This document shows, one piece after another, positions 1 to 50,996 of a stretch of DNA of 64,000 nucleotides. Location of the stretch: positions 6 to 64,005 of the forward strand of contig JAEEVT010000002.1 of assembly GCA_016291005.1 (NCBI GenBank), written 5' to 3'. The notes below the pieces were generated by a model. It did not search any database. It had not been told where the DNA came from and saw nothing but the letters and a program-made list of their open reading frames with translations. The position numbers were made by a program, and so were the translations under genes. Position 1 is the first letter of the stretch. Each line of letters opens with the position of its first letter. The DNA is from Prevotella sp. (GTDB lineage Bacteria > Bacteroidota > Bacteroidia > Bacteroidales > Bacteroidaceae).

Positions 1-2591
1 TTCTTTGTTATTTGTTCATTGTTATTTAGACGCGCGGCGTCGCTGATTCCTGTCGTCAGCACTTCGAATTCGCCAGTGAACGACTCACGGCTATTCTCCA
101 CGATGACGGTGTAACGGCCTTTGGCATAGGCGGAGATGTCGATGCTGAGGCCTACGATGGTGCCTGCATTGATGGTCTTCTCATAGACGACTTGGCCTGA
201 TTCGTTAGTAATGCTTACCAAGTAGGCATCGTCGAGCGGGTCAAGATGAATGCCTAACAGCAGGTCGTTGTATTCACCATATAGCGACTGTGCTTCACCA
301 CTCCTCCTCGGTACCTTAACCTCCGGTTGAGCCACCTCACGCTCGGAAGAGCCGATGCAAGCATCGCTATTCTCTTGCTTAAACGGTGCCTTGGGATTTG
401 TCTTGATGGTATGGGTGAAGTCGAAGCGGTCTTTTCGTGAACCCTCAGAGGTCGTTCCGTCCTCATATTCGTCGTTGAGGTAGATAACCTCATCGCCAAC
501 GGTACATGACATCAGGAAGTGCCCAAGATCTACTAACGTCGGATCAAACGCATTTGCTGTCAGTCCATCAATACCTCCGACTCCTTCCAACCAGAAGGTA
601 CTGTGGATGTTTTGGCCTTCGTTTTGACACAACATGATATCCCTGTAAACACCTTTAAAGCCTTTTATTCCTCCCGTCTGCTTCGGTCCAATAATAAAAG
701 TCCGATCATTAGGATAATCTGGATTGTCATTCAGGAAATACAGGGTTTCATTGGCACCGAGGGAGAAGTCATACATCATCCTCATAGACTGTGTCCCCTC
801 GTAGCAAAAGTACACTTTCTGATTCTCTTCGTACCATGCTCCTACTTTTCTCAAGGAATTTGGATTTGAAAAATCATAATAATTTGGATATTCAGGACTG
901 ACATATTGCTGGCACATCATCTGCTTGCAGGTCTTTCCATTGATGATCGTGTCGCCATCGAAGTAATAGTAGTCTACTATCTGCACAGGATTACCCGAAA
1001 ATATGGCACCAAACTTCCACACCTTACCGTCTTCAATCATTGGACGATAAGCTATTTGAGTTTCGAGTGGGACGATAGCTCCGAACTCGTTCCAAGGACT
1101 TGAAGCTTGATAGTTCTCAATAGATGCTTCAGGCACATGGAGGGTAATCTGCGAGAGGTCAACATCTCCAAAGGCATTATTGTTTGTATCAGGTACAGTT
1201 TTTGCATGGCAGTAAATATCTTTTATATTAGAAAGATATCTAAAAGCAAAGCCATCAATATAATTGATGCTTTCGGGTAAATCAAATGACTGCATAGCCT
1301 CACAGCCAATGAAGGCGCCATTGCCTATAGTAGTGATACCAAACGGAATAATGACCTCGGTCAATTTGCTACAGTCACGGAACATATCAGTTGGAATTTC
1401 TTTTAGATTTGGAGACAAGGTAGCACTCTTAAGTGACGTACAACCCATAAAGGCACCCCTACCAACCGTCGTAACACTTTTTGGTATTGAGATGGCATCC
1501 AAACTGCTGCATTCATAGAAAGCATAAGAATCTATAATGGTTACACTCTCTGGAATAACAAAAGATTTCAGTTTTATACAATTCCTAAAAAGACTAGTTG
1601 GCAATTCATTGATGTTAGACGAAAGAACAACTTCTTCTAAGCTTTTACTATTATAAAACATATGAGAGCCTAAGGTTTCCATATTGTCGGGCAATACTAT
1701 TAATTTCAAGTATTGACTATTTATAAACGCATACAACGAAGCTTTTTTTACACCATCTGGCACTGTATACGACTCTCGTGGCGAGGCAGCGGGATAGCCA
1801 ATAAGAGTGGTCTTGTCTTTGTTGAAAAGCACACCGTCTACAGAACTCAACACAGGATTTCCCTCTTCCACTTCTATTGCTTCCAAAGACAAACAACTGT
1901 TGAATGGACTATGGGGAAAATCCTCTAAGCTGCCAAAATCTGTATTCTTGACGCTCTTAGGAAGGATAATCTTTTTTATGGTACATTTTGTGTCAAATAC
2001 CCCCGGACTAATACTGGTAACAGTATATTTCTCGCCCTTGTTTTCTACTTCAGATGGTATCTGCAGTATTTCTGTATTATTATCCCATTCACTCTGATAT
2101 AACAGCTTGGCCTGATGTGTGGTCTTCAATAACTGATACTTTAACCCATCTATGTAAACATCTTCAGTATTATATTCCAAAACTAATGGTTCACCATCGG
2201 TCAGTTCTACCTGCCCGTCATACCACCAGCAAGTTAAATAGAAATTGTTATTCTCTAAATCACGAACTGTAAAAGATACGTTGAAAGGACAATTGCAGTC
2301 CATGTCAGCAGGAATAACAGGAACTACACTGATGGTCACAGAGCAGGGTTCATATCCGTTGCCTCCGCTTACGTTGGTTGTCACATCAAAGTCCCTCGTA
2401 CCGCAATTACTCATATAGTTTTGCAGTTGCACCGATAAAATGTTGCCCTCTTTCGTCAGGATGATAGTCGGTGTATAAACCATGTTACCTCGTGTCATCG
2501 ACAGACAGCCACTATTCTGTACGTCTGATACTGTCTGGGCACTTGCCAGCATTGGCAAGAAAAACATGAATAAAAATAATGATCGTTTCAT
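1..2591 (-). CDS. Secreted BspA-type leucine-rich-repeat surface protein, probable T9SS cargo; 3' end lies outside the window
   Basis: Manual translation from ATG 2591 (MKRSLFLFMFFLPMLASAQ) stays in frame to the window edge, which is why the ORF track omits it. Domains: Cys-containing N-domain, LRR_5 repeats (IPESVTIIDSYAFYECSSL, IPKSVTTVGRGAFMGCTSL), a YRPMIEDGKVW...WLEGVG domain, a DUF3244-like Ig domain and a TTGI linker. Confidence 0.85.
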   Translation of the reverse strand, partial: MKRSLFLFMFFLPMLASAQTVSDVQNSGCLSMTRGNMVYTPTIILTKEGNILSVQLQNYMSNCGTRDFDVTTNVSGGNGYEPCSVTISVVPVIPADMDCNCPFNVSFTVRDLENNNFYLTCWWYDGQVELTDGEPLVLEYNTEDVYIDGLKYQLLKTTHQAKLLYQSEWDNNTEILQIPSEVENKGEKYTVTSISPGVFDTKCTIKKIILPKSVKNTDFGSLEDFPHSPFNSCLSLEAIEVEEGNPVLSSVDGVLFNKDKTTLIGYPAASPRESYTVPDGVKKASLYAFINSQYLKLIVLPDNMETLGSHMFYNSKSLEEVVLSSNINELPTSLFRNCIKLKSFVIPESVTIIDSYAFYECSSLDAISIPKSVTTVGRGAFMGCTSLKSATLSPNLKEIPTDMFRDCSKLTEVIIPFGITTIGNGAFIGCEAMQSFDLPESINYIDGFAFRYLSNIKDIYCHAKTVPDTNNNAFGDVDLSQITLHVPEASIENYQASSPWNEFGAIVPLETQIAYRPMIEDGKVWKFGAIFSGNPVQIVDYYYFDGDTIINGKTCKQMMCQQYVSPEYPNYYDFSNPNSLRKVGAWYEENQKVYFCYEGTQSMRMMYDFSLGANETLYFLNDNPDYPNDRTFIIGPKQTGGIKGFKGVYRDIMLCQNEGQNIHSTFWLEGVGGIDGLTANAFDPTLVDLGHFLMSCTVGDEVIYLNDEYEDGTTSEGSRKDRFDFTHTIKTNPKAPFKQENSDACIGSSEREVAQPEVKVPRRSGEAQSLYGEYNDLLLGIHLDPLDDAYLVSITNESGQVVYEKTINAGTIVGLSIDISAYAKGRYTVIVENSRESFTGEFEVLTTGISDAARLNNNEQITK

Positions 2592-2611
2592 ATCTGTATT
2601 TTTTTTATTTC

Positions 2612-4072
2612 TTACTTCTTACCTATAACATCTTTTCTGTTGAGTATCTGTTCCAGCGTGATGTCTGGGTTGCTCTCTCCGAACACATCCTTCTTCAGCT
2701 TGAGTTTGCGATGCTGGACGGCGGAGACGGTGATGCAGTAGATGTTGCCGATGGTGCGGTTGCTGAGACCGAGCCGCGTGAGGATACAAAGGCGGATGTC
2801 GTCTTCCTGCATAGTGGGATGTTGTTCACGTATCTTGGCAAAGCGGTTGCCGTCGATGGCGTTGAGCGTACGTTCTATCTCGCTCCATTCGTGCGGACTG
2901 AGATAGATGAGCGAGTCGTCGCTTTGGTTTAGCTTCTTCAGCACTTCCGTACGTTCGAGGATGAAGTCTTGCAGGAACGCCACCACTTCGTTGGACTGGT
3001 GCAACAAGGTCTTCTGATGCTCGGCCTCCTGCTGAAGCCGACGTTTCTCCTGTTCCTGAACGAGTAGCTCGTTTTCCAGTTTCGACTGCTCATACGCTCG
3101 TTGCTGACGAAGCATACGGATGCGATAGCGAAGCGCCAGCACCACCGTAAGAAGGATGACGACTGAGGCTATGATGACTATCAGGAGTGTCCGGCCATAC
3201 ATCTTTGAGCGGTACTCCAGTTGCTGGTTCTCCATCTCCTGGCGCAACGTCTCCTGATAGTACTGGTCTTTCTGTTCCAGCGCCTTGTAATAGAAACCCT
3301 CTATTTGCCCGAAAGCCTCGGCTATGCTATCCTCCACCTGTGTGGCGCCCATCCGTCGGAGTGCGATCTTCGCGAGGTTACTCTGCACGATATATGCCAG
3401 GTGGACATCATTGCCAGGTTCAATCTGCCGATAGACCGTTTCTGCCGAATCGAGCATGTTAAGGCTGAGGTAACTGCGAGCCAGCACTTGCAATGCGCCT
3501 GGTTTCAGGTCGTTTGTCGCTGCCGATTCTGCCCGATGGGCATAGTCGAGTGCCTGGCGATAGTCCTCCCTGGCCCAGGCAATGTTTGCAAGACTGGTGA
3601 GCGTCTGGCACATCAAGTCCGTCATCTGCTTTTTCTCAGCGATATCGTAAGCACGACGGATGAAGTCGAGTGCTTCATCGTAGGAACCCTCCGTGGTGAA
3701 AGCCACCTGTGCGGCGTATGTTCCAGCAAAATCGAGCAGAATGACATAGTTGCGCTCATCGTCGGGATGCTGCTCATAGATGGCTAAGGATTTCTTCATC
3801 AGACGCAACGCCTCCTCTGGGTTACCCTGCGACAATGCTCTCGCCAATCGCTGATACGCGATATAATAGGTGTGCCAGTCCTCTGACGCTTCAGCCATCT
3901 TTATGGTCTTTCGCAGCAGAGTCTCACCCTGGCGGATGCTGTCGTTGGCCAAAGCAGCCTCAGCGTCCTCCAGACAACGAGCTGCCGTCTGTGGCTCCGT
4001 CTTCGGCTGTTGCTGACTGCAGGCAGCCATCAGAACGCCTATGATGAATATGTACAATGACCTTGCAAACAT
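2612..4072 (-). CDS. Membrane-anchored regulator: lipoprotein signal, TPR sensor, TM helix, coiled coil, C-terminal LuxR-like HTH
   Basis: Lipobox LMAAC, TPR helices, TM LLIVIIASVVILLTVVLAL, C-terminal LCILTRLGLSNRTIGNIYCITVSAVQHRKLKLKK. Start moved to ATG 4072 because the track's TTG 4105 lies inside the -7 promoter box. Confidence 0.8.
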   Translation of the reverse strand: MFARSLYIFIIGVLMAACSQQQPKTEPQTAARCLEDAEAALANDSIRQGETLLRKTIKMAEASEDWHTYYIAYQRLARALSQGNPEEALRLMKKSLAIYEQHPDDERNYVILLDFAGTYAAQVAFTTEGSYDEALDFIRRAYDIAEKKQMTDLMCQTLTSLANIAWAREDYRQALDYAHRAESAATNDLKPGALQVLARSYLSLNMLDSAETVYRQIEPGNDVHLAYIVQSNLAKIALRRMGATQVEDSIAEAFGQIEGFYYKALEQKDQYYQETLRQEMENQQLEYRSKMYGRTLLIVIIASVVILLTVVLALRYRIRMLRQQRAYEQSKLENELLVQEQEKRRLQQEAEHQKTLLHQSNEVVAFLQDFILERTEVLKKLNQSDDSLIYLSPHEWSEIERTLNAIDGNRFAKIREQHPTMQEDDIRLCILTRLGLSNRTIGNIYCITVSAVQHRKLKLKKDVFGESNPDITLEQILNRKDVIGKK

Positions 4073-4102
4073 TGTTATCGGTTTTTTGTCATTTCTCGGT
4101 TG

Positions 4103-4110
4103 CAAAGTTA
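4103..4110 (-). promoter_or_regulatory. Bacteroidota -7 promoter element TAACTTTG
   Basis: Matches TAnnTTTG, about 30 bp upstream of ATG 4072. Confidence 0.6.
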
Positions 4111-4141
4111 CGACAATATTTCTAAAGTTGTATCAGTTACC

Positions 4142-4249
4142 TATGGAAAAGATGCAAAAGAAGGAAATCAGGAAACTGCTACAAATCAGTGGCTTATGGA
4201 AAAGCGCCCATAACACCCTATGGAAAATTTTGATTGATGGTATGGAAAA
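4142..4249. repeat. Four direct TATGGAAAA repeats upstream of the TPR regulator
   Basis: Copies start at 4142, 4195, 4219 and 4241. Confidence 0.7.
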
Positions 4250-43701: not shown

Positions 43702-45387
43702 ATGAATACACAATTAATTCCGATGATTCCCCAATTTGACATTAAGCACTATGTATTAGGCATTCTCCTGCTGGCGGTCCTGTTTGGCTGCACCACCGAG
43801 GCTGAGCGCAACCGGATGCGCGCCGGCCTCGACAGCATCAACGTGCTCAACCGCACCGACCAGCCCTTCACCCCCGACGATGTCCGCCCCTATGTCGACT
43901 TCTTCGACAAAGAGGCCAAAGCCTTTTTCACCCTCCTCTCGTCAGACTCCATCCATAACGACCAGCTGCTGGCCCACTATCTCCTCGGCCGCGCCTACCA
44001 CGAGAAGGGCGACGCCCCCATGGCCCTCGAAAGCTACCAGCACGCCATCGACCACGCCGACACCACCTCCGCCTCCTGCGACTATAAACAGCTCAGCCGC
44101 GTGTATGCCCAGATGGCAGATCTGTTCTATTTCCAAGGGCTATACAGGGAGCAAATGAAAAACACAAAGGCTTCTGTTTACTATGCGTGGAGCGGTAAAG
44201 ACACCCTAGCCGCCCTCATGAGCTATGAACAATTGTTTTTGTGTTATAACAGTTTAGGCCTGATTGATTCCGCAATATATGTAATTGAGGATGTTGCTCA
44301 TCGTTATGACAACCTTGGATATACCAACTATGCTGCTACTTCACTGGGGTTGATTATGAAGCCTCTTGTTGAAACGGGTGATTATATAAAAGCAAGGAAA
44401 TATATGCATAGATATGAGTCTGAAACTGGCCTTTTTGACTCATCGGGAAATATTGCAAAAGGACGTGAAGTATATTATAAGATAAAAGGCCTATATTATT
44501 TTTATAATAATGTATTAGACTCTGCTGAGTATTATTTTAGAAAAGAATTACATGACGGTAAAGATTTTCATAATCAGCATTCCGCAGCACAGGGATTGAT
44601 ACTGCTCTATCAAAAGTTAGACCGCATAGATTCGATAGCAAAATATTCATTGTATGCCTATGCCATGAATGATTCCTTAAATGCTCAGAATCAAGCCAAG
44701 GAACTAAAACGTATACAGTCAATGTACGACTATTCCTGCCATCAGGAAGAAGCTCGTAAAGAAAAGATAAAAGCGACCTTAGCGAATCAAAGACTTTTAG
44801 TGAGCCTTGTTATCCTATTAGTCATTTCCCTCGTTGCATCATGGCTTTATATTGCGCGAAAACAAGTTATGGAGAATCTCAGAAAATCGCAGATAGCACT
44901 TAATACCTATAGAGTTGAGTTAAGGTTACTTCAACAGGACAAGTCGGCAAGTGAGCAATGCATCTCTGAGAAAGAAAGGAGAATTAGGCAACTTGAACAG
45001 AAAATGGGCAGATACGCCAAACTGGTTTATTTTGGTTCTGAGGTTGCGGATAATAATCTGAAGATGTCGCCCAACTACCAAAAGGTTAAAGCAATGGCTT
45101 ATAAAGGGCAATCTCTTTCGGCAGAAGAATGGAAAATCATAGGCCAACTAATCGGTGAGTATTTCCCTGGGTGTTATGATTTCTTGCTATCTAAACTAAA
45201 GGCCGATTCGATAGAATATAAAATATGTCTCTTACTACGTTTGCACTTCAAGGCTGGTGACATCGCTAATATGTTGGGCTTTTCTTCTGCATATGTTTCC
45301 AAGGTTAGCAGTGAGATTCTCAAGAAAACATTCAACAAAAAAGGCAGTTCCAAGGAACTTTCAACAACATTATGCAAAATATTTTGA
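43702..45387 (+). CDS. Lipoprotein-TPR-TM-HTH (LuxR-like) membrane regulator
   Basis: Lipobox LFGC, TPRs (AHYLLGRAY, LSRVYAQMA), TM LLVSLVILLVISLVASWLYI, C-terminal ICLLLRLHFKAGDIANMLG. Confidence 0.82.
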   Translation: MNTQLIPMIPQFDIKHYVLGILLLAVLFGCTTEAERNRMRAGLDSINVLNRTDQPFTPDDVRPYVDFFDKEAKAFFTLLSSDSIHNDQLLAHYLLGRAYHEKGDAPMALESYQHAIDHADTTSASCDYKQLSRVYAQMADLFYFQGLYREQMKNTKASVYYAWSGKDTLAALMSYEQLFLCYNSLGLIDSAIYVIEDVAHRYDNLGYTNYAATSLGLIMKPLVETGDYIKARKYMHRYESETGLFDSSGNIAKGREVYYKIKGLYYFYNNVLDSAEYYFRKELHDGKDFHNQHSAAQGLILLYQKLDRIDSIAKYSLYAYAMNDSLNAQNQAKELKRIQSMYDYSCHQEEARKEKIKATLANQRLLVSLVILLVISLVASWLYIARKQVMENLRKSQIALNTYRVELRLLQQDKSASEQCISEKERRIRQLEQKMGRYAKLVYFGSEVADNNLKMSPNYQKVKAMAYKGQSLSAEEWKIIGQLIGEYFPGCYDFLLSKLKADSIEYKICLLLRLHFKAGDIANMLGFSSAYVSKVSSEILKKTFNKKGSSKELSTTLCKIF

Positions 45388-45549: not shown

Positions 45550-45906
45550 ATGAGAAAAAAGTTTTTATTTATATTGAGTGCTTTTATGTTAAGCACAAGT
45601 ATTTATGCTGCAAGAGAGATAATTCCTCTTTCTGCTAAAAATGATAATCTTAAGCCAATTGGAAATGGTTATCCTAAATCCCCCGTTCAGGTTCCCACGG
45701 TCTACATTGAGGACTACACGCTGACATTTGAGGCTTATCACCCTGACTACATTCTTAATATTAAGGATGAGGATGGTGATGTGGTATTTACTACGACGGT
45801 CTACTCTGCTCAGACGCAGGTTGTGCTGCCGTCTACTCTCTCCGGCGACTACGAAGTCGAGCTCGTCATGGGCAACTGGCTGTTTACTGGTTGGATTAAT
45901 CTGTAA
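45550..45906 (+). CDS. Small secreted DUF3244-like protein
   Basis: Signal peptide MRKKFLF...IYA, PKSP motif, Ig-like domain ending GDYEVELVMGNWLFTGWINL; -7 box TACTTTTG at 45513-45520. Confidence 0.75.
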   Translation: MRKKFLFILSAFMLSTSIYAAREIIPLSAKNDNLKPIGNGYPKSPVQVPTVYIEDYTLTFEAYHPDYILNIKDEDGDVVFTTTVYSAQTQVVLPSTLSGDYEVELVMGNWLFTGWINL

Positions 45907-45982: not shown

Positions 45983-47107
45983 ATGAAGAATAATATTTCA
46001 TTCTTGATATTGCTGCTTATGTCACCTGCTTTCACCTATGGACAGTTTAAAGTGTTAAGCAACGGCAGGATAACAGTGGAATCAACTGCAACTACACCAG
46101 CAGCAAGGATTAATATAGGGGAATCTCTTAATGCACATAACTATAACATGGGAGTTTCTTCCTGTTTGGTTCCTGAGAATACAGACTGGAATATTGGTGT
46201 TTTTGGATCGGCTGCCAAAACTCCAGCTGTTCAAGGGCGGACATGTGGCGTTATGGGATTGGCAGATAATGGTTCTCAAGGTGTGAACTATGGAGTATAC
46301 GGCATTATTGGAGGGCAAAAGAACGGTGCAGCAGTGCTGGGATCTATAGGAATTTTTAATGATATTCTTTGGCATAAATATGCCGGCTACTTTAACGGAA
46401 CGACACGCGTGGTTGGCAGTTTGACAGCAAACTCTTTTAACACCCCTTCAGACGGAGGACTCATTCTGAATGTCCAACCATTGACAGATAGGGGAAGTTC
46501 GTTGGATAAGGTTTTAAGAATGAACACCGTGTCTTTTAACTACAAGGGAAAGGAAACGGCCGATGTGGCAGATGATACTTCATTGCCTTTTGATACTGCT
46601 ACACCAGAAACCGATGTGTATGCCATACGCCATTATGGCCTAATAGCCCAGGAACTGCAAGACATCTGTCCGGAATTGGTCAATAAGGGTGAAGATGGCT
46701 ATTTAGAAGTGAATTATGTCGAGCTTATCCCTGTTCTGATAAGTTCCATACAGGAACTGAAGGCAAAAGTCGATATCTTAGAAGGATTATCGAATGCTTC
46801 AGTTGCCAAGTCTCCTATGACTACTGGTATTTCTGGAGCCGCAGTAAGCGATAATGTTCTCTATCAGAACACCCCCAACCCCTTCAAAGAGCAGACTGTC
46901 ATCCGTTTCCGTTTAGCTGACGATGCTCAGAATGCCGCCATCTGCATCTTCGATATGACAGGCAAGCAATTGAAAAGACTCCCCATTTCGTCGGGAATGG
47001 ACAGCGTCTCCGTCGGAGGCTACGAGCTTGGCCAAGGCATGTTCCTCTACTCTTTAGTCGTCAACGGTCAGGAGATTGACACGAAGAAGATGGTGATTTC
47101 AAAATAA
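45983..47107 (+). CDS. Secreted protein with Gly-rich beta repeats, S74 intramolecular-chaperone domain and T9SS C-terminal domain
   Basis: HYGLIAQELQDICPELV, VNYVELIPVLISSIQEL, LYQNTPNPF...DTKKMVISK. Confidence 0.85.
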   Translation: MKNNISFLILLLMSPAFTYGQFKVLSNGRITVESTATTPAARINIGESLNAHNYNMGVSSCLVPENTDWNIGVFGSAAKTPAVQGRTCGVMGLADNGSQGVNYGVYGIIGGQKNGAAVLGSIGIFNDILWHKYAGYFNGTTRVVGSLTANSFNTPSDGGLILNVQPLTDRGSSLDKVLRMNTVSFNYKGKETADVADDTSLPFDTATPETDVYAIRHYGLIAQELQDICPELVNKGEDGYLEVNYVELIPVLISSIQELKAKVDILEGLSNASVAKSPMTTGISGAAVSDNVLYQNTPNPFKEQTVIRFRLADDAQNAAICIFDMTGKQLKRLPISSGMDSVSVGGYELGQGMFLYSLVVNGQEIDTKKMVISK

Positions 47108-47202
47108 ATAGTTTTGTTAATTATCATAATAATCGTTAACGAAAACATGTTAATGTTTGGTTTGTTTCTATTTTTGTAAACAGTTAGCAACAAGAGAAAA
47201 AT

Positions 47203-49458
47203 ATGAAGACTATATATCAATTACTAATAATATCCTCACTCTTGTTCGTCAAGTATAGGGCATTTGGAGAAAGTGTTACCCAAAAAGTACACTTCTCTCA
47301 AACGGAACTTAGGTGCAACACTATAATGGGTGAAGACGGGCTGCTTTATAGTCTCTTGACATATCCAGGAACCGAGAACGACTATTATAATTTGGGGTAT
47401 CCCACACTTCCCGTTAAATATGTGACTATTCCTCTTCCATACACCGCCGATAACATTTCGTTAAACATACAACAATTTAATGTCACGTCTTCTGCTATAG
47501 GAAACAGGATATATCCCATCCAAGAGCTAGAAGTTACATCCCTCGAAAGTTTAAAGAAAGAATTCATTCCTTGTGATAGTCGTGTCTACGAATCCGCTGC
47601 ACCTTACCCTTCAGAACGGGTAAGAATTGCGGAAATCTCATGCGTTGGGCATGGAGACAGGCTTGTTGTTGTTGCGGTATATCCAGTAACTTACCGCCCA
47701 TTTGAAAACCAATATGAGTTTTCTGAGGAAATAGAGTTTACCCTGACATATAATCACTCCTCAAAAAGATCAGAGGTTTTGACTCGTAATACACGAACAA
47801 CAGATATAGGTATACCGTTTTATGAATATTGTATAATTACGAGTCAACCCCTAAAGGATGCTTTTACCCGTTTGGTTGCATGGAAACGGGAGAAAGGATT
47901 AAATGCTGGCGTCGTATGTAAGGAAGAAATACTCAATAATGCATATATTGTAGGAGACACTGTTTCTTCTATATATGATGATGCTGGTAAGATAAGACAA
48001 TACTTGCAATATGCATACGACTCGGGGGTAACAAAATATGTATTATTTGGAGGGAACGATAGTGTTTTACCTATAAGATATGGTACTGGCTATAACGATT
48101 ACTGGACTAAACCACAAACTCACATAATCCCCAATGATTATAAGATTCCATCGGATTTCTATTTTAGCGAATTAAATTCAAACTGGAATACGGATAATGA
48201 TATTTATTATGGAGAATATAGTGATAATCTGGACTATGGGTCGGAATTGTGCGTAGGACGTCTGTTGTGTACTAATTCTGAGGAAATACATAATTATACC
48301 GATAAACTCTTAAGATATGAAATGAATCCTGGAAATGGGGATTTCTCTTATCTCAAGAAGGCCTTATATACACAGTCTGACGAAATGCAAAACGGGCATG
48401 AACAAGACAGCATAGCGGCTCAACTTCAGTCTATTTTCCCTATAGATACGATTTTCTCTGAAGTGCCCTCTTATAATGATCCTACACCCACTGCGCCATA
48501 CGGGAATGAAGTTATTGCAGAGATGAATGAACACTATGGGTATGTGAGCTGGGGTGGACATGGTCATCCAAATGAAATAACGATGAAATCTAATGGATGT
48601 GCACAATCTTCTCATTATGCTATTACATCCGTTCAGGGTAATATTCCATATGTAGAACAAGAGACGGCAAACGGACTGGATAATCTTACAAACAAAGACT
48701 ATCCCATGTTCGCATATTCAATATCATGTACAATTACCCCCTTTGACACATTTAATGAATATACAGAGTTTCCAAACATGGGGCAATCTTTTACGTTAGG
48801 AAAGGACTATGGTGGCCCCGTGCTTGTTGGTAATACAAGATATGGATGGGTCGGATCTTCTGCGTACATGCAAAAAAAATTCAATGAAGGCCTATTCATT
48901 AACCCTATGGTAGGTTATGCGCAGAATTACGCGAAATTAAATTACCACTATCATTATTTACGCCATAGCTCAAACATAATAGGATGCCCCAATATCCGCA
49001 TTTGGACTGACATTCCCAAACTTTTTTCAGCAAGTATATCATATAACTCCAATAATTATATTATCTCAGCTAACAATTCTATTTCAAATGCAGAAATAGG
49101 CGTTCGGGATATTACACAAACAGATGAAAGAGTTGACACTATTAGTTTCAGCCCTTCTCAGGGGTCAAAGACTCTTGCAAATGTAGAAAACTGCCTTATT
49201 ACTTTAACTGGTAAGAATTGTCTGCCTCAGATAATGCCTTTGACTATTCAGAATGCGACACTTCATGGCAAACACCATGCTATCGTTAAGGACGTCGCTT
49301 GTGGAACGGATGTAAGGGCAGGAACCCAAGGGAATGTCATCTTTGAACAGGATTCAGACTATACTTTTGAAACAAAAGGGACATTTGAATTAACCAATGG
49401 CGTAGAAATAAAATTAGGAGCGCAATTGGAAGTAATACCATCAGAAATAAACTATTAA
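47203..49458 (+). CDS. C25 (gingipain-family) cysteine peptidase with propeptide
   Basis: PTLPVK propeptide, WKREKG, YVLFGG, SDFYF, VGRL, catalytic GHG and SISC. Confidence 0.85.
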   Translation: MKTIYQLLIISSLLFVKYRAFGESVTQKVHFSQTELRCNTIMGEDGLLYSLLTYPGTENDYYNLGYPTLPVKYVTIPLPYTADNISLNIQQFNVTSSAIGNRIYPIQELEVTSLESLKKEFIPCDSRVYESAAPYPSERVRIAEISCVGHGDRLVVVAVYPVTYRPFENQYEFSEEIEFTLTYNHSSKRSEVLTRNTRTTDIGIPFYEYCIITSQPLKDAFTRLVAWKREKGLNAGVVCKEEILNNAYIVGDTVSSIYDDAGKIRQYLQYAYDSGVTKYVLFGGNDSVLPIRYGTGYNDYWTKPQTHIIPNDYKIPSDFYFSELNSNWNTDNDIYYGEYSDNLDYGSELCVGRLLCTNSEEIHNYTDKLLRYEMNPGNGDFSYLKKALYTQSDEMQNGHEQDSIAAQLQSIFPIDTIFSEVPSYNDPTPTAPYGNEVIAEMNEHYGYVSWGGHGHPNEITMKSNGCAQSSHYAITSVQGNIPYVEQETANGLDNLTNKDYPMFAYSISCTITPFDTFNEYTEFPNMGQSFTLGKDYGGPVLVGNTRYGWVGSSAYMQKKFNEGLFINPMVGYAQNYAKLNYHYHYLRHSSNIIGCPNIRIWTDIPKLFSASISYNSNNYIISANNSISNAEIGVRDITQTDERVDTISFSPSQGSKTLANVENCLITLTGKNCLPQIMPLTIQNATLHGKHHAIVKDVACGTDVRAGTQGNVIFEQDSDYTFETKGTFELTNGVEIKLGAQLEVIPSEINY

Positions 49459-49469
49459 AAGAAACTATT

Positions 49470-50996
49470 ATGAAGAGATTTGTATCGTTTTTGTTCTTCT
49501 TGGCTGTGCAGACATTCCTTTTTGCCCAAGAGTATTACCCCGAAGGGACCAAATGGACGGAGATTAGGCTTGACACGCTGAAGTATGACAGCTGGTATTC
49601 GAAGGTCGGCGACGAATGGGTGCCGAACTTCGAGACTGTGGAGTACTATGTCCAAGGGGAATATGTAAAAAAGGAGTGGGATGATTCCAATATATTCAAA
49701 AGAGTATACACCAACGGCCCGGAATGGACAGACTCCCTCACGCTGTTGATAATAGAAGGTGAACAGGCGAGAGACGTTTATGGACAAAATTGTGTTTTGG
49801 TGTCAGTGCTAAACAATGCCACTGATGGACTTTATGCGCTCTGGCCAGGTGAGGCGTACCAGTTTGACTGGAGCGTAGGAAAAGAACTTTATTATCAGGA
49901 TATTACTATGTCAAATACGACAAGTATGTGGAAGCCTTATTTTTACTATGGCATAATAGATGAAATCAAGGAAGGATACTTTGGAGGTGTAAAACCGCTG
50001 AAGTACGTGGATTTAGACGGTAAGGCACCAGAAGATGAAACGGGTTTGAATAGAAATATTAGCACAAATGGCGGTCGTATCATTCAAGGAATAGGCATTA
50101 CGGAATGGAATGACGGAGAATGCCTGTTCGGACCACCAAACCCATATTTTGCTTCAACATGGGAAATGGGTAAACGTCATTACCGCTCCATGCTTGTTCA
50201 TTTTGAGCGCAACGGAGAGGTGCTTTATGACGTCTGGCCAGAGAAAAAGTCTGACGACGCAGTTGCGCAGGAGGCTGACATGTTTGTCGACAAGAGGAAG
50301 TCGTGGAGATGCCTGAATGAAATGCCGGGATGGGAGCCGGAAGTCCACATGTATGAGTTCTCCGGGGACGTAACGGCAAACGGCAAGACTTACTCCGAAC
50401 TGCTCATGGACGGCAGCCATCCTTATTTGTTACGGCAGGAGGGGAACAAGGTGTTTATGATTGACAATAATAGCCCCGAAGAGGTGTTACTTTATGACTT
50501 TGGGCTGGAAGTTGGGGACAAGTTCTCTTTTACAGGTAAGGAAAGTGAGAATCTGGTGGTAATGGACGTTGACTTCATTACGGTAGGCGACCGCGTCCGC
50601 CGCAGGATGATCTTTGCATGGGAACGGTACTTGCCTAAAGATTATGATGTGCAGTCACTCAGCAGCCAGGATTACTCCGCGATTGATTGTTGGGTTGAGG
50701 GCATAGGCAGCGTTTATAGTCCCGTAAGTCCGATGACACCATTCATGATAGGTGGCCGCTACCGTACTCAGAGCTGCTTACTGGATGGAAGCGTCATCTT
50801 CTCCTATTCCGACTTCGGCGTTGATTCGTATAATCCCCAAAACGGCTCATCTGTAGCTATCCCGACACAAACCGAAAACGTCCGTCAGCCCGTCTTCGAC
50901 CTCCAGGGCCGCAAACTGTTAAATAGTCAATGGTCAAATAGTCAAATCAGAAGGGGCCTCTACATCCAAAACGGACGTAAGGTCGTGGTGAAGTAA
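49470..50996 (+). CDS. Secreted two-module protein with Prevotella-type T9SS tail
   Basis: Signal peptide; modules containing IIQGIG and WVEGIG; tail FDLQGRK...RGLYIQNGRKVVVK. Confidence 0.8.
   Translation: MKRFVSFLFFLAVQTFLFAQEYYPEGTKWTEIRLDTLKYDSWYSKVGDEWVPNFETVEYYVQGEYVKKEWDDSNIFKRVYTNGPEWTDSLTLLIIEGEQARDVYGQNCVLVSVLNNATDGLYALWPGEAYQFDWSVGKELYYQDITMSNTTSMWKPYFYYGIIDEIKEGYFGGVKPLKYVDLDGKAPEDETGLNRNISTNGGRIIQGIGITEWNDGECLFGPPNPYFASTWEMGKRHYRSMLVHFERNGEVLYDVWPEKKSDDAVAQEADMFVDKRKSWRCLNEMPGWEPEVHMYEFSGDVTANGKTYSELLMDGSHPYLLRQEGNKVFMIDNNSPEEVLLYDFGLEVGDKFSFTGKESENLVVMDVDFITVGDRVRRRMIFAWERYLPKDYDVQSLSSQDYSAIDCWVEGIGSVYSPVSPMTPFMIGGRYRTQSCLLDGSVIFSYSDFGVDSYNPQNGSSVAIPTQTENVRQPVFDLQGRKLLNSQWSNSQIRRGLYIQNGRKVVVK

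Follow-up and report, generated by a model that had tools for sequence, protein, structure and literature searches.

Genomic linkage of DUF3244 Ig-like domains with TPR-containing membrane regulators in the Bacteroidaceae, and a cargo-fused form of the domain in rumen Prevotella

The closest described counterpart of the system considered here is the gene pair BT_3442/BT_3441, which a Joint Center for Structural Genomics (JCSG) paper on BT_3439 names in passing: BT_3442, encoding a tetratricopeptide repeat (TPR) protein, and then BT_3441, encoding a homologue of the DUF3244 structure 3D33, open a putative lipoprotein operon (PMC2954219). A literature search covering DUF3244, the BT locus tags and regulators that combine TPRs with a helix-turn-helix (HTH) yielded no functional study, just this paper and PMC10434189, where expression tables are the sole other match. 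A similar arrangement occurs twice in a stretch of 64,000 nucleotides (the window), bases 6–64005 of contig C18 of a rumen Prevotella metagenome-assembled genome (MAG; 3.09 Mb, 82% complete, 200 contigs): (i) regulator 1 (2612..4072, minus strand) is followed, 20 bp downstream on the same strand, by a gene for a BspA-type leucine-rich repeat (LRR) secreted protein (3..2591, minus strand) that carries an immunoglobulin (Ig)-like DUF3244 domain; and (ii) regulator 2 (43702..45387, plus strand), a paralogue of 561 residues, is followed, 162 bp downstream on the same strand, by a gene for a standalone secreted DUF3244-like protein of 118 residues (45550..45906, plus strand). As in BT_3442/BT_3441, a multi-domain membrane protein with TPRs thus precedes a DUF3244 Ig-like protein, which in the described pair is small, at the head of a cluster of secreted proteins or lipoproteins (PMC2954219); at the regulator 1 locus, however, the domain is built into the cargo, only 20 bp separate the two genes, and the regulator, at 486 residues, is shorter. 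Against the model of the 'BT3442 family' (NF053779, cut-off 940 bits), regulator 1 scored 25.7 bits and a regulator 2 paralogue on contig C185 of the same genome 41.8 bits, the match spanning the region from the transmembrane (TM) helix to the HTH, and regulator 2 gave no match. By this profile, the window regulators are only distant relatives of the BT3442 family.

Better-known systems offer partial parallels. In Vibrio, ToxR and TcpP are bitopic one-component regulators, each with a small periplasmic partner (ToxS and TcpH, respectively) whose gene lies downstream; ToxR has an N-terminal cytoplasmic winged helix of the OmpR type. By analogy, the Prevotella regulators may be bitopic inner-membrane factors co-expressed with a periplasmic partner that modulates the sensor; however, their predicted topology is opposite, with a C-terminal cytoplasmic LuxR-like HTH and a TPR sensor, ToxS is not a DUF3244 protein, and there is no sequence relationship. 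The RRNPP regulators (Rap/NprR/PlcR/PrgX) of Firmicutes are cytoplasmic TPR and HTH proteins that bind re-imported short peptides encoded next door. Here, too, a TPR sensor is fused to an HTH and the candidate ligand gene is adjacent, an analogy that may provide a lead for reading the invariant linear motif described below, although in our case a periplasmic location is predicted for the TPR domain, and a folded domain takes the place of the peptide. SusR-like regulators are Bacteroidetes-specific membrane proteins whose operators have been predicted as direct repeats with a spacing of 67 or 77 bp (PMC3878776). Compared by architecture and operator logic only, they share with regulator 1 the periplasmic sensor, the C-terminal cytoplasmic HTH and the direct repeats; conversely, SusR senses maltose and controls polysaccharide utilization loci, no DUF3244 partner has been described for it, and the repeats reported here are spaced by 22–53 bp.

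As the window begins at base 6 of contig C18, the LRR gene lacks its 3' end, and 863 residues of its product are visible. The Pfam model of DUF3244 (PF11589, gathering cut-off 25 bits) matches this protein at 35.9 bits over residues 778–844 (window 60–260), and its homologues score 30.9–37.3 bits, the match covering profile positions 4–95 of 96 when the linker described below is short. The sequence-only reading of this DNA had noticed the peptide HTIKTNPKAP followed by an Ig-like domain near the C-terminus of the LRR protein. Peptide (residues 727–736) and domain are indeed present. About 50 residues follow the Ig domain in every full-length homologue, and the domain is therefore not terminal. 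The same reading drew a parallel with the product of the gene at 45550, to which PF11589 gives 21.9 bits (E 1.8e-4, profile positions 21–92), below the cut-off. This protein aligns with 26 standalone members that are above or near the threshold, and their profile matches the C-terminal module of the LRR protein at 97.5% probability; judged by profiles, though short of Pfam's curated threshold, it is a divergent relative. Furthermore, a hidden Markov model (HMM) of standalone proteins encoded next to regulators in many genera (29 sequences) matched all 76 module proteins, with E-values from 6e-16 to about 1e-10, and an hhalign comparison of the fused domain with the standalone family gave 97.5% probability (E 5.9e-12, 79 columns). 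Pairwise BLAST of the two window domains is marginal (E 0.006, 35% identity over 52 residues).

Structural comparisons point in the same direction. The AlphaFold2 model is that of the homologue L079 rather than of the truncated window protein; at 372 residues, comprising a signal peptide and the module, it is the shortest member, and it is 54% identical to the window protein over domain X, the conserved region upstream of the DUF3244 domain (pLDDT of the model, 82.6). The L079 model superimposed on the DUF3244 crystal structures 3D33 (Z 14.2, root-mean-square deviation 1.9 Å, 91 of 93 residues), 3SD2 (Z 10.6) and 4G5A (Z 10.2), and its next-best matches were the C-terminal domains (CTDs) of type IX secretion system (T9SS) substrates (Z 7.5–9.3). 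Judged from this model, the fused domain is a DUF3244, and DUF3244 is structurally akin to the T9SS sorting domain. The superposition with 3D33 extends over model residues 223–324 and takes in strands 225–233, which contain the motif R-x-D-F-T-H-T-I-K; the low-complexity stretch that follows PKAP thus appears to be a loop inserted in a complete DUF3244 domain. Although the homology of the two domains stands, the shared 'PKxP' that had been part of the proposed parallel is ambiguous as a linear motif: hhalign places 'QVP' of the standalone protein opposite the residues just before LYGEY, while Pfam DUF3244 positions 4–95 cover TKPKAP in a short-linker homologue.

To gauge linkage between regulator and domain, we used two samples. 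The first comprised loci orthologous to that of regulator 1 (80 fetched, 70–92% identity), found in MAGs of Prevotella and Prevotellaceae from cattle, sheep, goat, yak, buffalo and deer; downstream DNA was informative in 71. In 68 of these 71 loci, one to four tandem module genes lie downstream of the regulator 1 orthologue. In 58 loci, no more than 100 bp (typically 3–68 bp) separate the regulator from the start of a module gene of the same orientation; in 10, the module gene lies farther downstream, and three loci have none. In five whole genomes, seven of eight module genes are situated just downstream of a regulator orthologue. The module was present in just one other genome from a draw of 30 relatives and is thus confined to a subclade.

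The second sample, 81 Bacteroidaceae genomes from 27 genera, contained DUF3244 matches in 29 genomes, whose surroundings were fetched. Regulators were assigned to the family by the shared DNA-binding domain, a TM helix before it and an N-terminal TPR region, features that regulators 1 and 2 both have. Among the 44 significant DUF3244 matches (at least 25 bits, upstream DNA present; 19 genera), 36 have a same-strand family regulator that ends 5–271 bp upstream (in one case, 821 bp), and for two more a regulator frame or an HTH remnant lies upstream, giving 36–38 of 44. The remainder include L144 and L151, whose regulator lies no more than about 1 kb away but in the opposite orientation, and L130, a true T9SS CTD that cross-matches DUF3244 at 25.2 bits. 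Since five Bacteroidaceae genomes encode 7–29 family regulators each (about 14), the chance that an upstream neighbour is one of them is about 0.4%, and the observed adjacency is enriched about 200-fold. The linkage between these regulators and DUF3244 is far beyond chance, and we are highly confident that DUF3244 is the genomic partner of the regulator. The earlier suggestion that both window regulators immediately precede a gene with this domain is borne out, and neither of the two findings named there as refuting it, a lack of homology between the domains or a lack of enrichment beside such regulators, was obtained; the description of the domain as a 'dedicated partner' is supported at the level of tight genomic linkage and homology.

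The separate form of the partner appears to be the older one. Alignment of the last 110 residues of regulator 2 with regulator 1 relates the two proteins, whose full-length BLAST match is weak (E 5e-4), and both align with 35 others over about 110 residues of the C-terminal domain. In a tree of this DNA-binding domain, regulators 1 and 2 fall on either side of the family's deep split. Regulators whose partners are C-terminally fused (the window protein, L123 and L126) form one clade (99/94) with standalone-partner sisters; those with N-terminally fused partners, found in another genus (L100, L128, L129 and L131; signal peptide, DUF3244, LRR_5 and tag, encoded right after the regulator), form another (94/70). 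As both fused clades nest among standalone-partner regulators, fusion to cargo is a derived state that has come about at least twice, mostly onto BspA-type LRR proteins; hence, the proposal that the domain is standalone at one locus and fused to the cargo at the other agrees with the tree. The ancestral and commonest form of the cassette would be a separate DUF3244 protein encoded right after the regulator, which in this Prevotella clade has become fused. A search for longer DUF3244 proteins, including fusions to the regulator, found none, which is weak evidence.

The standalone arrangement is exemplified within the same genome. In the operon of regulator 2, the small DUF3244-like protein is followed (45983–49458, plus strand) by genes for a Peptidase_S74 protein with a type A T9SS CTD and a C25 peptidase with its propeptide, and then by a gene for a 508-residue protein (49470–50996, plus strand) that ends in a short tag and in which Pfam detects no Por_Secre_tail. 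Peptidase_S74 domains are intramolecular chaperones, and C25 peptidases constitute the gingipain family. Two more such loci, on contigs C185 and C158, encode a regulator, a small DUF3244-like protein and a C10 peptidase with a Spi pro-domain.

In the fused form, conservation extends beyond the Ig domain. Behind a signal peptide (2535–2591) that predicts Sec-type export, the LRR protein contains LRR_5 repeats (PF13306) scoring 165.8 bits in two stretches (cut-off 27.7), the best of which spans 1428–1775. These are followed by domain X, an all-beta region of about 200 residues (514–712; window 456..1052) that is conserved in 78 sequences and belongs to no named family; by the motif RFDFTHTIKTNPKAP (384..428), which includes HTIKTNPKAP and which, judging from invariant columns and the model superposition, supplies the N-terminal strand or strands of the DUF3244 fold; by the low-complexity linker (288..383), the presumed loop within that fold; by the Ig-like beta-sandwich core of DUF3244 (residues 769–845; 57..287), delimited by PF11589, hhalign and 3D33; and by the start of a C-terminal tail, TTGISDAARLNNNEQITK... 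(3..56), all on the minus strand. Full-length homologues, 82–97% identical in the C-terminal part, continue for about 30 residues beyond the last residue encoded in the window and end in a short sorting-like tag (...IYNLQGQRLSSLQKGLNIVNGKKVYVK). Within the motif, D-F-x-H-x-x-K-x-x-P is invariant in all 78 module sequences. Mean column identity is 0.81 in the motif and 0.80 in the DUF3244 core versus 0.64 in domain X; it is 0.49 in the linker, which varies in length among module proteins and is duplicated in P0072. The N-terminal cargo is freely swapped, module proteins carrying LRR_5, Reg_prop, BNR/sortilin, CarboxypepD_reg or no further N-terminal part. From these alignments, the conserved unit is a module of about 350 residues (domain X, motif, linker, DUF3244 and tag) rather than the Ig domain alone. 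A fold search with the AlphaFold2 model of domain X (pLDDT 85.8) found no clear relative, the best match being 4fvs (Z 6.9) alongside weak similarities to LolA/MucB/YmcC-like half-barrels; Foldseek returned only 3fzx at a low TM-score, and the ESM Atlas just unnamed Bacteroidota clusters.

Regulator 1 heads the cassette at 3–4249 (minus strand), and its parts are all encoded on that strand. It has a lipoprotein signal ending in LMAAC (4019–4072; hydropathy segment 10–30 of a 497-residue open reading frame), a TPR sensor of about 270 residues supported by Pfam TPR matches (3206–4018), a single TM helix (3119–3205; hydropathy segment 301–329 of the same frame), a coiled coil (2918–3118) and a predicted, divergent LuxR/GerE-type HTH of about 100 residues (2615–2917). 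The combination of lipoprotein signal, TPRs, one TM helix and C-terminal HTH predicts that the TPR domain is periplasmic and the HTH cytoplasmic. The HTH was predicted with A3, a profile made from a 37-sequence alignment of the regulators' C-terminal DNA-binding domain, which matches the DNA-binding domains of VraR, FixJ, DosR and NarL with E-values from 2.4e-4 (best) to 2e-2; GerE (PF00196) is matched by six of the 37 family members (best 2.8e-6), and regulator 1 alone gave no Pfam match for this domain at E ≤ 1. Among regulator orthologues, mean column identity is 0.86 in the TPR domain and 0.90 in the HTH. A start at TTG 4105 was rejected because this codon lies inside the promoter −7 box; the true start is ATG 4072, and the resulting 486 residues equal the length of 100%-identical database homologues.

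The −7 box of the regulator-cargo operon, TAACTTTG (4103..4110, minus strand), is of the TAnnTTTG type, the Bacteroidetes-type −7 consensus of Bacteroides promoters; TCGTAACTTTGCA is conserved across loci. Upstream of it, four direct repeats TTTTCCATA(GG) form a candidate operator array (4142–4150, 4195–4203, 4219–4227 and 4241–4249, minus strand), spaced by 53, 24 and 22 bp; about 35 bp separate the box from the proximal TTTTCCATA copy. When the upstream regions of 76 orthologous loci are aligned, TTTTCCATAGG copies with TCGTAACTTTGCA after them prove to be conserved, two or three of the repeat copies to at least 80%. The TTTTCCATA 9-mer occurs 37 times in the 3.09-Mb genome, four of them within these 108 bp; a lone TTTTCCATAGG match on contig C131 is a chance match in a coding region, and a match to the 9-mer on C69 is a duplication. 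The HTH of regulator 1 most likely binds these repeats, and the gap of only 20 bp between regulator and LRR gene makes the two look like one autoregulated operon.

Taken together, these features can be accommodated in a single scheme. The region 3–4249 (minus strand) would be one operon-like cassette, in which regulator 1, an inner-membrane one-component regulator with lipoprotein signal, TPR sensor, TM helix, coiled coil and HTH, would bind the four repeats and thereby control its own transcription and that of the downstream gene. The latter would encode a Sec-exported BspA-type LRR surface protein that ends in domain X, DUF3244 and the sorting-like tag. The periplasmic TPR domain would contact the DUF3244 domain or its invariant N-terminal strand or peptide, so that regulator output would depend on how much partner the periplasm contains; where domain and cargo are fused, the cargo itself would be read in transit before export. 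We regard this scheme as a whole, with moderate confidence, as the best explanation. The TPR domain and the DUF3244-bearing protein are both predicted to be periplasmic, and a physical contact between them is a tentative proposal, slightly less likely than not to prove correct; the sign of regulation and the export route are likewise what we infer.

Several observations weigh against this scheme. The eighth module gene in the five whole genomes is a stray with no such regulator upstream. In five genomes with 69 family regulators, Pfam detects DUF3244 downstream of only about 40% (29 matches), and in the 10 orthologous loci with a more distant module gene, an LRR gene without a module usually stands between the two. 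All tandem cargo paralogues have retained the domain, whereas one copy would suffice for a regulatory partner. As the orthologous loci are related by descent, 68 of 71 shows conservation of one arrangement rather than 68 independent events. Furthermore, adjacent genes are co-inherited, and therefore linkage alone cannot tell a regulatory partner from a first cargo or accessory gene. Finally, the fold also resembles T9SS CTDs, with Z-scores of up to 9.3.

This last point bears on the main alternative, in which the Ig domain is an element of secretion or surface display (a carrier, stalk or anchor similar to a T9SS CTD) and the regulator senses an unrelated periplasmic signal, without contact between the two. 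The genome does encode SprA (2501 bits) and PorV (503 bits). The domain shares the seven-strand Ig-like sandwich of type A sorting domains, resembling translocon-bound substrate CTDs (8glk_D; Z 9.3, deviation 1.9 Å, 73 of 75 residues) as well as the CTDs of RemA, mirolase and RgpB (Z 7.5–8.5). Sub-threshold Por_Secre_tail matches of 16.7–23.9 bits fall on the same stretch, the fused domain scoring 16.7 bits with PF18962 (cut-off 27) and 13.0 with TIGR04183 (cut-off 23), and its homologues 16.6–23.9 bits. The cross-match of the true CTD L130 points the same way, as do the position of the domain next to a C-terminal tag and its retention in all tandem paralogues. However, DUF3244 is the model that scores above its threshold while both CTD models remain below theirs, and DUF3244 structures match clearly better, including the extra N-terminal strand that T9SS sorting domains lack. 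Type A sorting domains, moreover, lie at the extreme C-terminus of the cargo, whereas about 50 residues follow this one. The tag offers a further contrast: at least 57 open reading frames of this genome end in a tag of about 30–50 residues, (TTGI)…Y.L.G.R/K..…KG.YI.NGKKV.IK, and lack DUF3244, which among all frames of the genome is fused only in the LRR protein; DUF3244 is not the general sorting signal. The tag itself resembles a much-shortened type A sorting domain and may be a clade-specific mini sorting signal. Module genes are nearly confined to the regulator locus, and the standalone DUF3244 follows the regulator whatever the cargo; in the regulator 2 operon, cargo genes bear their own CTD or tag and DUF3244 is separate. 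DUF3244 is also present in B. thetaiotaomicron, where, as a control, the SprA model finds no match. The domain is probably not an export signal, and we consider this alternative unlikely.

A second possibility builds on the favoured TPR–DUF3244 scheme and adds a function to the fusion. DUF3244 could be a reporter welded to the cargo in a secretion-coupled feedback switch, such that transcription would track the cargo still waiting in the periplasm, not that on the surface. By analogy, this switch would be a periplasmic counterpart of FlgM/sigma-28, serving many swappable secreted-factor cassettes in Bacteroidales. We view it as a rather unlikely, speculative extension.

According to a third, Rosetta-stone explanation, DUF3244 is a periplasmic chaperone, adaptor or inhibitor of the cargo, acting in trans or built in, and is not the partner of the regulator. 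Two independent fusions to cargo, in both orders and mostly to BspA-type LRR proteins, would fit such a role, and in this genome the standalone copies are followed by C10 and C25 peptidases, enzymes that commonly come with an inhibitor or chaperone of their own. Yet the standalone gene stands right behind the regulator irrespective of the cargo encoded next, which belongs to unrelated classes (MACPF/lectin-like proteins in B. thetaiotaomicron; C10, C25 and S74 proteins here). To have clients as diverse as these served by a single adaptor fold is less economical, and no fusion of DUF3244 to a peptidase was seen in our sample. We therefore judge this explanation improbable. That two unrelated Ig-like domains merely happen to lie downstream of two TPR proteins, as the weak pairwise BLAST values for domains and regulators might suggest, is refuted by the profile and structural homology of the domains, the homologous C-terminal domain of the regulators, the roughly 200-fold enrichment across genera and the identical gene order at C185 and C158, and has a negligible probability.

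The favoured scheme of a TPR sensor that reads DUF3244 would have wider consequences. In the loci described here and in B. thetaiotaomicron, family regulators head cassettes of secreted factors: proteases, MACPF/lectin-like proteins and BspA-type adhesins. Three crystal structures of DUF3244 are available. The fused forms constitute a natural experiment indicating that the domain can act in cis on cargo, and the invariant DFxHxxKxxP together with the well-conserved TPR sensor provides candidate contact surfaces that, with the repeats, would make up a small circuit. If the contact exists, it would account for the way in which Bacteroidales of gut and rumen turn on their surface adhesins and secreted weapons; if it does not, DUF3244 would represent a novel domain for handling cargo, with kinship to the sorting domains of the T9SS. 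What this analysis contributes is the fusion of DUF3244 to cargo and the confinement of the fused form to the locus of the regulator, together with the invariant motif and, for this clade, the array of direct repeats.

Several individual loci depart from the common pattern. In the rumen module protein P0089, a type I dockerin (PF00404, 29.3 bits), a domain unusual in Prevotella, immediately follows DUF3244 in place of the tag. Two loci, L037 (9453–15339) and L060 (1517–5385), where a domain X gene is accompanied by a gene for an 88-residue Ig protein, were rejected as cases of true fission, as each results from a deletion or frameshift inside the Ig domain; the breaks fall just after …KPKAPRRLPADT, twice in one locus, and leave frames of 63–88 residues, so that these are decayed or mis-assembled copies. 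A 170-residue 'headless' relative of the regulator, with TM helix and HTH and no TPR (L012:1480–1992, minus strand; contig C111 of G000), adjoins a 1459-residue tag-bearing protein. Between two tandem module genes of a related genome lies an 86%-identical fragment of the regulator HTH within a 147-residue frame (G034:C9:51343–51570), as would be expected if the entire cassette had been duplicated and its second regulator had then decayed. At the orthologous locus L058 (9440–17440), the regulator is followed by a truncated gene and then by reading frames resembling those for integrases and mobilisation proteins, which suggests that a mobile element has inserted at the cargo position.

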